Program-made: the position numbers and the translations under genes
Origin: a virus
Reading direction: 5' to 3' (one strand)
Virus genome (UHGV): UHGV-0349264
DNA length: 16,264 nt
The notes under the pieces: model-generated
Databases searched by the model: none
What the model saw: only the letters and a program-made list of their open reading frames with translations
What the model was told of the DNA's origin: nothing
Shown: positions 1,583 through 8,393 of the stretch, piece by piece
How the letters are laid out: each line of letters starts with the position of its first letter
Numbering within the stretch: position 1 is the first letter of the stretch

Positions 1583-1658
1583 TGGTGCTGGTTAACGGAC
1601 TTGAACCGCTACCCATTCGCTTACAAGGCGACTGCTCTACCATTGGAGCTAAACCAGC
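1583..1658 (-). tRNA. tRNA-like gene, anticodon UGU (Thr), with encoded CCA
   Basis: Hand-folded 76-nt cloverleaf on the minus strand: acceptor GCTGGTT/AACCAGC (7 perfect bp), D-arm GCTC-CAATGGTA-GAGC, anticodon arm GTCGC-CTTGTAA-GCGAA, T-arm AGCGG-TTCAAGT-CCGTT, discriminator A, CCA. Confidence 0.7.
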
Positions 1659-1663
1659 ATGTT

Positions 1664-1738
1664 TGGCGGGACAGCGTGGACTCGAACCACGATAAGAAGG
1701 TTAACAGCCTTCCGTAATGACCTTTATACGACTGACCC
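1664..1738 (-). tRNA. tRNA-like gene, anticodon GUU (Asn), with encoded CCA; one acceptor-stem mismatch
   Basis: 75-nt cloverleaf: acceptor GGGTCAG/CTGTCCC (U4-U68 mismatch), D-arm GTAT-AAAGGTCA-TTAC, perfect anticodon stem GAAGG/CCTTC with loop CTGTTAA, perfect T-arm CGTGG-TTCGAGT-CCACG, discriminator G, CCA. It starts 3 nt after the tR' T-tract. Confidence 0.6.
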
Positions 1739-5181: not shown

Positions 5182-7575
5182 TCATACGTCAGCCCCTTGT
5201 GCATATCGTCTGCCACGTGCAGCAGGTGCATTTGATGTTGTGCAAATCTGTCTGGCTTCATCCTGGTCACATGCAACAAAGTGTCCGTTGCAGAACCGCT
5301 GGTAAACCGTACCAAGCGAGCCAAAACGGTTTTTTGTCACAATGATTTCAGCAAATGGCGCGGCGCTACTGTTCTCGTCATATACCGCTTCCCGATAGAG
5401 CATGATGATTGAGTCTGCGTCCTGTTCAATGCTTCCTGAATCACGCAAATCTGCGTTTGTCGGGCGTTTGTTTGGTCGCTTCTCAACATCGCGCGAAAGC
5501 TGACTCAGGGAGATAACAGGCGTTTTCAGGTCTTTCGCCATCGCCTTCAGGCTTCCGGAGATGTGAGCAATTGCGAGATCGTTGCGATCTGCTTTAGGCT
5601 TCTCAATCAGGCCAAGATAATCCACCATGATGAGTGACAGGTTTGGATTTTCCTGTTTATGCCGTTCTGCGATTGAGCGTATTTCTTCGACCGATAACCG
5701 AGAGGCATCGACTACCCATACATCCAAATCTGCAAGCTGACTCATGCCGTTAGCAACACGCGCCCAGCCTTCGTCATCCATCGATGCAGGATTTCGCAGT
5801 ACGCTAACCGACATCCTCCCGGCGTTGGCAATGCTTCGCTCTGCAATCTGCAATGCGCTCATTTCCATTGAGAAAATCAATACCCCGCGCCGGACGTCAG
5901 AACCAGGAATAACGCGGCTTGCCACGCCTTCGGCAATCTTCAGCGCCAGTTCCGTATTGTGCGTAACGATGTAATCCGTTGTCACATAGAGATGACTAGG
6001 ATGGCTTACCATGATGCAGAGACACTCTTCTGGCTCAACAACTTCAACCGATTTGATACCCACACCAAGGTTACCAAGCCTGTTAATCCCGAGATTTTTA
6101 CGTAAACGTGGTGAGTGAATTTGCTCTATCAAAGATGATGGCAACTTCATGCTGACCATGTGTGCGTCAAGTCCGGCATGCTTCTCTCCTTTGTACGTGT
6201 AAACTATTCCCGTCCTGCTGGATTCTTTGGCGGTTCCACCTAAAGATCTAACAAGCCTTACTAATCCTTTAGCTAATTTCTGACTTGATGAACTAAAGCG
6301 GATGCATCCGGACTTCTCAACCCAGCCATCTGTCTCGAGCAGGCCAGTTAAAACACCGGTACGTATTTCTTTGCTAGCACTAAAAATTTCTTCTGGGATT
6401 TCCTTCTCGGACGCACCTTTCCCGATCACCCCAATGCCACGTAGTTTGTCCAATAGTGGGTTCTTCTGGCCTTTTTGGTTACTTATCAAATAATCATTCT
6501 CTCCTACCTTAACCAGTCGCAGTGGTGCAATTGCATCACTCATGCGGCTCAGGACATATTCTTCCGAGTTGGTGAATTTGATGCCTTTTATCAACGAACC
6601 GTCACCAAGTAGAGCCCCAATAACCCAACCATCAAGGGGAATATTTTTACCAAAGTCTCCGGTCAAGGATGGCACTCTTATTCTTCCCTGATAACGTGTT
6701 TTTTGTAGCATCCCAGCCAGCGCATCAGTATCAACAACGCGTTTACCAGTAAATCTTGATGATGAAATTTCCCATAAGTGGTTGTCGGCACATTTCACGC
6801 TACGTCCGTCTTCAAAGGTGACTAAATATGTGAATTTCTTCCCTTGCGGGAAGACGCCAATTACCTCCGAAGGAAGCCCGTCTATTGACGCGATGCGATC
6901 GCCAATTTTGACTTCTCCGTGAGTAGTCCAGGTGCCATCTGCAAGTAAAATCCCTTCGCTTAGCGCCATTGCTTTCCCCATACCAGGACGAGCAGCGATT
7001 ATCACAAGGTCTTCTGCGTTCATCCCTCCGGTGATGGCATCAAGTTCTTCGATTCCGGTCTTCAGGGTATCTGACTCTTCTCCGTTCCTCAGACGCCTGT
7101 CAAGCGTGTCAGTGTAGTCAGTGATGATTTCCCCTAACCGCACCGGTTTAACCTCGTCACGGGGCTTTCTGATGGCTGAGAGACGCTTTACAAGCTCATC
7201 CATCGCCTGACTCGATGCGTCGATGGTTCCGCTCCGAATTGGTTCACGCATTTCATCCATGATTTCCAGCACCAGACGGCGGTGATAGTTATCCGCGACC
7301 ATTCCGGCATATCCCTTCAGGTTTGCGGCACTCGGGCAGTTTTTGCTGGTCATCAGGATTGACGTGAAATGCTCCTCTCCGCACTCCTCGGCAACCAGCA
7401 GCGCGTCGATTAGGTTTCTGTTTCTCGCCTGCTTGCGGATAACCTCGAAGGCTTTTCTGTAGAGCGGAATTGAAAACGCTTCCGGCTCAAGCGTTGCCAG
7501 AACGTCACTGGCGGTTGGAGTTAATCCACCAATCAGCAAGCCACCGATAACGCTCGCTTCGATATCCTGTCTCAT
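5182..7575 (-). CDS. dnaB: DnaB-family replicative helicase interrupted by an in-frame intein in the Walker A P-loop
   Basis: 797-aa ORF. Residues 1-201 (ending ..[13 protein letters not shown]) and 541-797 ([64 protein letters not shown]) align with the DnaB N- and C-terminal domains. Extein total is 458 aa, similar to P22 gp12-type helicases. Confidence 0.9.
5956..6972 (-). other. Intein (339 aa) with LAGLIDADG homing-endonuclease domain, inserted between Lys and Thr of the helicase P-loop
   Basis: The insert begins [15 protein letters not shown] right after GMGK and ends ..DYIVTHN, followed by Thr that restores GMGK-T. Two LAGLIDADG-like motifs are present ([23 protein letters not shown]). 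Block B reads H-L-W, block F contains ECLC, and block G reads T-H-N. Confidence 0.75.
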
Positions 7576-8393
7576 GCAATCCCCCTGTCTGCAAACTTCC
7601 CTTCCCGAACTCCCGTTAACGAATCTTCTCTCAGCAAGTAATCAAAATCAGCCGTCCAGCCCGTGTCGTTGTCTCCGAAGTAAAACGGCTTGGCCTGATG
7701 TACAAACGCCCTGACATACGCTCTGAAACCGTCCACGTTTGGCGTTTTCAGTTGTGGGATGATTTTCTTCAGGCGGCGTTTGCGTTTCTCGTTGACCGCA
7801 ACAGCGTGTGGAAGTCTGTCACCGACTTCGGTGTTGTAGGCGTTCAGGAAGGATTCGTAGTCGATTCGTTCTGCCTTGCGACGTTCAGGTTTAACCTGCC
7901 CATCGCCGCCCCCGTTAGGGGGTAAGGGGGTATTTGTATTTATTGTCTTTTGTATATTGTCTTTTGTGTTTAGCTGACTTGGCTTATACCCATTAGCCGA
8001 CTTGGCTAATGTTTTATTAGCTGTTTTAGCTAATGTTAAGCTGTCCTGGCTAATCCACTGCGAAACCACCTTGTTCACTCCGATTTTCACGCCATCAGCA
8101 ATGAGGAATTTACGCTCAATAAGCTGGCGCTTGGCAGCGCAAACATGAGTGTGATGAATACCTGTCATGGCTGCTATCTGCGTGTTTGTGAGTCGATCCA
8201 TCGGCTTATTGAATCCGTATGTCTTGCGCATGATAGCGAGCATCACCTTCAACTGCCGGACGGTTAAATCAGCCATCAGCAGACTGTCGGTAATCTCGTT
8301 AGCAACGCGCATGAAACCATCTTCGGTATCTGCCACGCGATGCTCCACGACCTCCAGTTGAGGCCTGTAATCAGCTAACTTAACGACGCCCAT
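7572..8393 (-). CDS. O: Replication initiator, lambda O-like (replisome organizer)
   Basis: 273-aa ORF immediately upstream of and overlapping the helicase. The N-terminal domain resembles phage O proteins, the central low-complexity linker is encoded by the iteron array, and the C-terminal domain is non-lambda. Confidence 0.85.
7928..8054 (-). repeat. Replication origin inside the O gene: four ~16-bp iterons plus adjacent AT-rich region
   Basis: Direct repeats AGCTGACTTGGCTTAT (7972), AGCCGACTTGGCTAAT (7995), AGCTGTTTTAGCTAAT (8019), AGCTGTCCTGGCTAAT (8039), followed in the O direction by an AT-rich tract (7928-7970, tatttgtatttattgtcttttgtatattgtcttttgtg). Confidence 0.65.

Follow-up and report, generated by a model that had tools for sequence, protein, structure and literature searches.

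How does a replicative helicase work when its ATP-binding loop is interrupted by 339 residues? This question is raised by UHGV virus genome UHGV-0349264, a stretch of viral DNA of 16,264 nucleotides (hereafter the window), in which an open reading frame (ORF) of 797 amino acids encodes a DnaB-type helicase whose Walker A motif, or P-loop, is split between the conserved Lys and Thr. We conclude, with a probability of roughly 85%, that the helicase gene of this lambdoid prophage is host, at the Walker A Lys/Thr position, to a class 3 intein that is functional and encloses a LAGLIDADG homing endonuclease. The extent of the insert, its fold, its signature residues and its distribution among related prophages are described in turn, after which alternative explanations are weighed.

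An insert in the Walker A motif of a prophage helicase

The insert is in frame, comprises residues 202-540 of the precursor and separates the Lys from the Thr of the Walker A sequence GMGK/T (here and below, a slash within a sequence marks a splice junction). Residue 202 is encoded by nucleotides 6970..6972 and residue 540 by nucleotides 5956..5958. A preliminary description of this DNA had placed the insert at 5956..6972; these boundaries are exact, and the strings quoted there (AARPGMGK/AMALSEG, YIVTHN/ and GLLETDGWV) are all present. It had also stated that removal of the insert restores GMGKT and a helicase of 458 residues, which we reproduced in silico: deletion of the 1017 nucleotides joins ARPGMGK to TELAL in a 458-residue protein. 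Intein-free genes annotated as 'replicative DNA helicase' in Escherichia coli L65 and 19A14 are exactly 1377 nucleotides long, the same length as the spliced product, and differ from the in silico spliced gene by 34 and 38 nucleotides (7 and 6 residues), respectively, with zero gaps, in agreement with the gapless extein alignment that had been anticipated; the 19A14 prophage is otherwise 99% identical. A 600-nucleotide fragment spanning the in silico spliced junction gives a single contiguous match of ~98% identity in 669 of 5426 complete E. coli genomes. As with other inteins, removal of the element yields a contiguous, conserved host protein, here colinear with the intein-free alleles. The GC content of the insert is 45.5% compared with 53.1% and 51.3% in the two exteins. 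The insertion is far beyond chance, and the observation is confirmed.

Domain searches with the precursor support this arrangement. Pfam locates the DnaB N-terminal domain (PF00772) at residues 3-95 and DnaB_C (PF03796) at residues 540-762; the DnaB_C match is broken into two stretches around residues ~203-540, and matches to LAGLIDADG_3 and Hom_end fall within the gap. The NCBIfam models DnaB (TIGR00665) and phage_DnaB (TIGR03600) likewise match in two stretches, each scoring under the cut-off because the insert interrupts the helicase. Once spliced, the protein has the architecture of the DnaB family, with the N-terminal domain, a RecA-like C-terminal domain and an intact Walker A motif, and its gene is ~98% identical in nucleotide sequence to genes for 'replicative DNA helicase'.

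To describe the fold of the insert, we used an AlphaFold2 model built on an alignment of 26 family members (mean predicted local distance difference test score 95.1, predicted template modelling score 0.92). The top Foldseek match in the PDB is PI-SceI, the yeast VMA1 intein (E 9e-19; template modelling score on the query, TMq, 0.75), followed in order by the TliVMA, PhoVMA, PI-PfuI and PI-PkoII inteins. Later matches comprise the class 3 mini-inteins MchDnaB-1 and Msm DnaBi1 (template modelling score on the target, TMt, 0.75-0.81), then I-DmoI-type LAGLIDADG enzymes and the Hedgehog HINT domain; I-Tsp061I was also among the structural matches for the endonuclease domain. The model has a HINT fold in which the two splicing halves flank an inserted domain. 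In a sequence search of the PDB the best match was the gp41-1 intein, followed by PI-SceI and mycobacterial DnaB inteins. When searched in isolation, the insert matched LAGLIDADG_3 (E 1.5e-6) and Hom_end (E 1.4e-4), both past the Pfam cut-offs, and it contains two LAGLIDADG motifs, as in the monomeric two-motif enzymes, each with an acidic Asp that is invariant in the family. Asp124, Asp215 and Lys190, the block D lysine of the intein, are invariant or nearly so; in the alignment they match residues of the LAGLIDADG motifs and block D of PI-SceI, which include its two catalytic Asp residues and block D Lys. PI-SceI thus shares the two-domain HINT and LAGLIDADG architecture, with aligned endonuclease motifs, but it is a eukaryotic class 1 intein with Cys at position 1, an extra DNA-recognition region and only ~15% identity. 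The insert is an intein with a LAGLIDADG homing endonuclease domain, as the profile search and the structural match to PI-SceI both indicate and as had been proposed from the sequence.

Class 3 inteins were defined in 2010, as were their Trp/Cys/Thr (WCT) triplet and the way they concentrate in the P-loops of helicases (PMC2807308). The class was examined in a MAFFT alignment of 36 family members that included the prototype, the intein of mycobacteriophage Bethlehem gp10. His65, Trp67, Cys319, Thr337, His338 and Asn339 share columns with Bethlehem His65, Trp67, Cys320, Thr339, His340 and Asn341, and these six columns are invariant in all 36 sequences. Position 1 is Ala rather than Cys, Ser or Thr, as in 32 of 33 aligned sequences, and the intein therefore has no N-terminal nucleophile. 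Trp67 occupies B:12, two residues past the B:10 His65; Cys319 is at F:4; and Thr337 at G:5 precedes His338-Asn339 and the extein Thr+1, a residue that is Thr in 34 of the 36 sequences. In the prototype the block B His and Trp are essential, and residues P1, H65, W67, C320, T339, H340 and N341 were mutated in the original study (PMC2807308). The Ala1, the W/C/T signature, the terminal His-Asn and Thr+1 listed in the preliminary description are therefore borne out by alignment to a characterised intein. On sequence and model, the element has every class 3 feature that we examined, and its chemistry is predicted. Of the two Cys residues in ECLC, the second occupies F:4; Cys317, two residues upstream of it, is not conserved in the family.

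Two further features of the cysteines were observed. The arrangement around Cys319 (6016..6018) is CxC, with Cys317 at 6022..6024, and many relatives have ECQCI at this position. An extra cysteine, Cys61 (6790..6792), is present in block B, where relatives often have CC.

Table 1. Coordinates of the helicase gene, its intein and related loci. Positions refer to the window unless another locus is named.
Feature	Position	Strand	Evidence
Precursor gene: DnaB-type (HK97 P / P22 gp12-like) replicative helicase with intein, 797 aa	5182..7575	-	ORF list, Pfam, NCBIfam
N-extein: precursor residues 1-201, ending ARPGMGK (Walker A); Lys-1 at 6973..6975	6973..7575	-	Colinear with intein-free L65 and 19A14
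C-extein: residues 541-797 and stop codon; remainder of RecA-like ATPase domain	5182..5955	-	Pfam DnaB_C; colinear with intein-free alleles
Intein, 339 aa (residues 202-540): HINT splicing domain with nested LAGLIDADG homing endonuclease	5956..6972	-	AlphaFold2, Foldseek, PDB sequence matches, GC content
LAGLIDADG homing endonuclease domain, intein residues ~82-300	6073..6729	-	Pfam LAGLIDADG_3 and Hom_end; HMMER alignment to PI-SceI
LAGLIDADG motif 1 (GALLGD124G; Asp124)	6592..6624	-	
LAGLIDADG motif 2 (GLLETD215G; Asp215)	6322..6354	-	
Splicing block A; first residue Ala1 at 6970..6972	6934..6972	-	Alignment
Splicing block B: His65 (B:10, 6778..6780), Trp67 (B:12, 6772..6774)	6766..6807	-	Alignment to Bethlehem His65 and Trp67
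Splicing block F: Cys319 (F:4, 6016..6018), predicted branch-point nucleophile	5980..6027	-	Alignment to Bethlehem Cys320
Splicing block G: Thr337 (G:5), His338, Asn339 (5956..5958), extein Thr+1 = P-loop Thr (5953..5955)	5953..5976	-	
Intein-helicase gene copies with pseudogene-type annotation	Window 5182..7575; L001 6001..8394; L002 3001..5394		
Leminorella grimontii ATCC 33999 DnaB-like helicase, unannotated, 822 aa with 340-aa intein	L008 2299..4767		

Relationship to known inteins

The preliminary description regarded an intein of this class in a lambdoid prophage replication gene as unusual, a view that does not hold. The K/T position of the P-loop is a 'classic' intein site (PMC5050341), in mycobacteria the same DnaB site is occupied by DnaBi1, likewise of class 3 (PMC6195587), and an intein has been noted in replication protein P of phage phi24B, reported as 968 residues (PMC3430580). 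The intein of the Min27/phi24B P protein, a TOPRIM primase/gp4-like helicase of Shiga toxin (Stx) phages and Shigella flexneri prophages, is 50% identical in amino acid sequence over its full length (339-342 residues). It shares the junctions GK/A and THN/T, the W/C/T residues, both LAGLIDADG motifs and the block F sequence ECLCIMV, as well as the niche, since both elements are found in the replication modules that lambdoid and Stx prophages of E. coli carry. The host proteins differ, in that P is non-orthologous and its exteins have no detectable similarity to those of the window's DnaB / HK97 P / P22 gp12-type helicase. The Min27 P gene also appears truncated past the intein, with a C-extein of only 147 residues followed by a separate, overlapping 'DNA primase' ORF; at the locus that comprises Min27 P and this following ORF (L003 14575..17483), P is possibly frameshifted downstream of the intein. 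Partial ShP-Sfv Primase inteins have been named (PMC2807308). Our literature search, which did not cover InBase, found this phi24B/Min27 P intein and no paper on an intein in a DnaB-type helicase of lambdoid or Stx phages. In InBase the Min27 element goes under the name 'EP-Min27 Primase'.

The prototype itself required clarification. Class 3 inteins had been said to be first described in a mycobacteriophage DnaB; the mycobacteriophage origin stands, whereas the host protein is gp10 of Bethlehem, the terminase large subunit (TerL). The prototype is assigned to gp10 because the residues at positions 1, 62, 65, 67, 319-321, 324, 328, 330 and 339-341 of its 341-residue insert match those of the published intein. 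Bethlehem gp61, the DnaB-like helicase, was considered as the host and rejected, as it contains no intein. The gp10 intein is homologous to the prophage intein over its full length (27% identity, tblastn E 1e-14), with the shared His, Trp, Cys, Thr, His and Asn columns, Thr+1 and a LAGLIDADG endonuclease. It differs in having Pro1 after Gln-1, a terminase host and a site that is not the P-loop K/T position but a poorly conserved helix (TerL1-c; PMC5050341). Experiments on TerL1-c have demonstrated that it splices, that its block F Cys is obligatory and that its endonuclease is active (PMC2807308, PMC5050341).

Host family and site are shared with the DnaBi1 inteins of Mycobacterium smegmatis (Msm), M. 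leprae and M. chimaera (DnaB site b; PDB 6bs8, 6rix), which interrupt the same point of the DnaB P-loop and have the Mg-coordinating Ser/Thr as their +1 nucleophile. They share Ala1 and the WCT triplet (PMC6195587) and, in addition to the structural similarity given above, are detectable by sequence at E ~1e-5. These are cellular inteins of ~140 residues that lack an endonuclease and have Ser+1 and a DxxH block B, whereas the prophage intein is phage-borne, retains its endonuclease and has Thr+1 and Ala at B:7. Splicing of Msm DnaBi1 is redox-sensitive owing to a disulfide with its catalytic Cys; the redox partner, Cys48, is without a demonstrated counterpart in the prophage intein.

Outside E. 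coli, the closest relative found is a 340-residue intein in a prophage DnaB-like helicase of Leminorella grimontii ATCC 33999, which is 71% identical and has the same P-loop junctions, K/A and HN/T. The gene is flanked, as in the window, by an upstream ORF that overlaps its start (the position held by replication protein O in the window) and by a NinB-like ORF. Identity to the exteins of the window falls to 28% on the N-terminal and 39% on the C-terminal side, and the intein is therefore far more similar than its host gene. Together, the Leminorella and Min27 relatives imply that the lineage has moved between diverged, and even non-orthologous, P-loop helicases in enterobacterial prophages.

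More widely, tblastn identified homologous inteins in 713 phage records, from mycobacteriophages and jumbo phages among others; the host genes encode, for instance, helicases, terminases, gyrase and SNF2 proteins. A protein search, in which all matches were shorter than 600 residues and none was a full-length precursor, was used for collecting the family and not for estimating occupancy; the relatives that it recovered lie in NTPases such as DnaB and PhoH, and nearly all of them share the pattern GK/AQPL...HLW...QCI...THN/T. Related inteins thus occur in unrelated hosts (primase-helicase, PhoH, terminase and SNF2). In PhoH-family hosts, related class 3 inteins follow a conserved MRGR/ motif rather than the Walker A GK/ (P0027, P0029, P0040-P0043, P0047, P0049, P0051, P0054, P0056, P0059 and P0068), and this position therefore represents a second insertion site used by the same intein lineage. 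The prophage element is an additional, misannotated class 3 intein of a well-known family and not a new kind.

Distribution, selection and annotation in E. coli prophages

The full intein-containing gene is present in 24 of the 5426 complete E. coli genomes and the spliced-junction form in 669, so that ~3.5% of sites are occupied. Among 20 of these intein-bearing genomes, each has one copy of this helicase type, and occupied and empty forms occur together in none of them. An intact ORF of 797 codons (2394 nucleotides) was found in all 20 full-length alleles examined (17 from IMG/VR together with E. coli YP3, E. coli RM8352 and the window). An intein that is 98.6-99% identical occurs in 51 phage records, mostly O121-type Stx2a-converting phages, with the addition of O157 Stx2a phages and TL-2011a. 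The identical 797-residue protein is also encoded on ENA metagenome contigs.

For 11 distinct alleles that carry the intein and are closely related to one another, nucleotide diversity amounts to 0.6% within the intein but to 2.45% for the N-extein and 1.85% for the C-extein, a 3-4-fold reduction that extends to synonymous sites (synonymous divergence, dS, 0.03-0.05 in the intein versus 0.06-0.15 in the exteins). The comparison with the Leminorella intein is saturated at synonymous sites and allows no ratio of nonsynonymous to synonymous divergence (dN/dS) to be computed; we therefore used the divergent allele L132. Against this allele, dN/dS is 0.083 for the whole intein, 0.064 for its HINT part and 0.093 for its endonuclease part, and values across both exteins and the intein lie between 0.065 and 0.11. 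In the L132/L139 allele, from IMG/VR metagenome contigs, the exteins are 72-74% identical to those of the window and the intein 88.6%, and the shift in divergence coincides with the intein boundaries. This helicase allele is ~26% divergent in nucleotide sequence from all others that we collected and carries the same intein at 11% divergence. For five intein-bearing alleles, that of the window included, the nearest extein relative is an intein-free allele.

The codon for Thr+1 (5953..5955) is ACG in 19 of 21 occupied alleles, whereas the 120 empty sites in IMG/VR have ACC in all but one, which has ACA (Fisher p = 1e-21 for ACG in 19/21 versus 0/120, with related alleles treated as independent). 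Eight empty-site genes that appeared 'non-intact' were left out, as fixed-coordinate extraction had been applied to alleles differing in length; they are not read as pseudogenes. This wobble base is the only extein polymorphism linked to the intein, and the next variable positions, 33 nucleotides to either side, are unlinked. The linkage may be the trace of a very short co-conversion tract, or the base may be relevant to recognition by the endonuclease. Taken together, the intact frames, the low diversity of the intein, the L132 allele, purifying selection, the scattered distribution, the linked wobble base and the AT-richer composition fit an element that spread recently and horizontally over existing helicase alleles, with selection maintained on both of its activities. 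The suggestion that this could be a mobile homing element thus finds support in the population data, namely in diversity, in L132 and in the linkage of the +1 codon.

The helicase gene has as its neighbours a homologue of replication protein O (7572..8393), cII, cro, an S24/helix-turn-helix cI repressor, NinB, a KilAC antirepressor, antiterminator Q, two tRNAs, RecT and Ea22-like genes, the early region of a lambdoid prophage. The closest match among complete genomes is an E. coli prophage with 99% identity over 74% of the window; other phages match in pieces only. The tRNA genes, tRNA-Thr(TGT) at 1583..1658 and tRNA-Asn(GTT) at 1664..1738, both on the minus strand, lie between the Q antiterminator and the holin, and the prophage of E. 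coli 19A14 has the same pair, also between its own Q and holin genes.

In RefSeq, the Prokaryotic Genome Annotation Pipeline (PGAP) labels the helicase gene as two or three 'incomplete' pseudogene fragments in YP3, O121 RM8352 and other intein-bearing E. coli genomes. The alternative RefSeq product is a 453-residue protein (WP_370663521.1-type) that starts from a Met inside the intein; this N-terminally truncated PGAP product is the 100%-identity match in our protein search. Because the reading frames are intact, the pseudogene calls are an annotation artefact, which we attribute to a pipeline that does not model inteins. Prophage-intactness pipelines will therefore wrongly score these phages as replication-defective.

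Proposed mechanism and alternative explanations

As its P-loop is split, the 797-residue precursor would be unable to bind ATP. We propose that Cys319 (F:4) attacks the Lys-1/Ala1 peptide bond to form a block F thioester branched intermediate, from which the N-extein would be transferred to the side chain of Thr+1. Cyclisation of Asn339 would release the 339-residue intein, and an O-to-N shift would complete GMGKT, yielding a 458-residue helicase with an architecture identical to that of the intein-free alleles. Phage replication is therefore proposed to depend on splicing. Once free, or else while still within the precursor, the intein would be expected to cleave intein-free alleles at CCTGGTATGGGGAAA/ACCGAACTGGCG, the predicted target being the empty site CGTCCTGGTATGGGGAAAACCGAACTGGCGCTGAAG, and repair from an intein-bearing copy would spread the element among lambdoid phages. 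We infer both the splicing chemistry and the endonuclease activity from homology to the Bethlehem and Msm DnaBi1 inteins.

Several points weigh against a functional, mobile class 3 intein. The prediction of splicing, of a block F branched intermediate and of DNA cleavage comes from homologues; RefSeq PGAP calls the gene pseudogene fragments; block B position 7 is Ala, not Thr, Ser or Asp, and the equivalent S62A change is tolerated by the Bethlehem prototype (PMC2807308); the low diversity of the intein could partly reflect recombination of the whole gene segment and not homing; and the significance of the wobble-base linkage assumes independence among alleles that are related. It is possible, albeit unlikely, that the intein splices while its endonuclease is no longer active, in which case patchiness would have arisen through vertical descent, mosaic recombination and occasional precise loss. 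Decay of the endonuclease is common among inteins. Mosaicism is pronounced in lambdoid phages, as the piecewise matches of other phages to the window illustrate, few of the available sites are occupied, and Msm DnaBi1 has indeed lost its endonuclease (PMC6195587). However, purifying selection on the endonuclease domain is as strong as on the splicing domain (0.093 versus 0.064), D124, K190 and D215 are conserved, and intein diversity falls below that of the exteins even at synonymous sites; the drop in L132 divergence at the intein boundaries and a linkage limited to the +1 wobble base, such as a short co-conversion tract would leave, also speak against this reading.

The route of splicing might differ from that proposed above if Thr+1 attacked the N-terminal junction directly, as in class 2 KlbA-like inteins, with the W/C/T residues serving a structural role only. 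Ala1 also begins the KlbA inteins (PMC2807308) and the chemistry is predicted here, but we consider this route very doubtful, since KlbA inteins are without the WCT triplet, which co-varies with loss of the N-terminal nucleophile (PMC2807308), since the F:4 Cys is invariant in all 36 relatives and obligatory in the Bethlehem, Dra Snf2 and Msm DnaBi1 inteins (PMC2807308, PMC6195587), and since Thr is a weak nucleophile against an amide. That the gene is a dead, interrupted helicase in a prophage that uses host DnaB or fails to replicate is highly improbable. The PGAP labels in YP3, RM8352 and other genomes would suggest as much, and we rejected this reading on the intact frames (20/20 alleles), on purifying selection across exteins and intein alike and on the conservation of all catalytic residues; moreover, the allele is carried in 49 records of Stx2a-converting phages as well as in O157 and O103 Stx2 phages. 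Practically no credence can be given to the reading of the 339-residue block as a normal accessory domain in some longer form of the helicase, for which nothing speaks beyond the missing Cys or Ser at position 1. Such a domain would not be expected to split the invariant P-loop GKT, to be absent, over exactly these 1017 nucleotides, from near-identical genes or to recur in the unrelated hosts listed above; the precise intein-free alleles and the structural matches to HINT and LAGLIDADG proteins refute it.

A functional class 3 intein at this position admits a more speculative extension, which we regard as improbable, in which the intein is not just a selfish element. Conditions such as redox state or metals could control its splicing, as they do for mycobacterial DnaBi1, and so gate replication of the Stx2a prophage, and/or the endonuclease could serve as an inter-phage weapon. 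The idea of conditional splicing derives from the block that the intein imposes on the P-loop until it is spliced and from the fact that the initiating nucleophile is a cysteine, Cys319, with Cys317 and Cys61 nearby. If true, splicing would gate replication of Stx2a-converting prophages, and hence the copy number of the toxin gene, after induction, and the endonuclease could cut the intein-free helicase allele, found in ~12% of complete E. coli genomes, in co-resident or superinfecting lambdoid phages.

Knowledge of inteins in general is unchanged by this finding. What it provides is a native intein in a prophage replication gene of E. coli, the standard host for intein work, and the 24 intein-bearing genomes include O121:H19, O157:H7 and O103:H25 Stx2a-converting phages. 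One useful outcome is a correction of the RefSeq pseudogene calls in these clinically relevant phages. The locus is also a tractable natural system: empty sites that are almost identical number in the hundreds, a dozen alleles are occupied, and sister inteins exist both in a divergent DnaB and in a primase-helicase that is not orthologous. In a host with easy genetics, it lends itself to work on class 3 splicing, on the homing of inteins and on their jumps from one P-loop protein to another.

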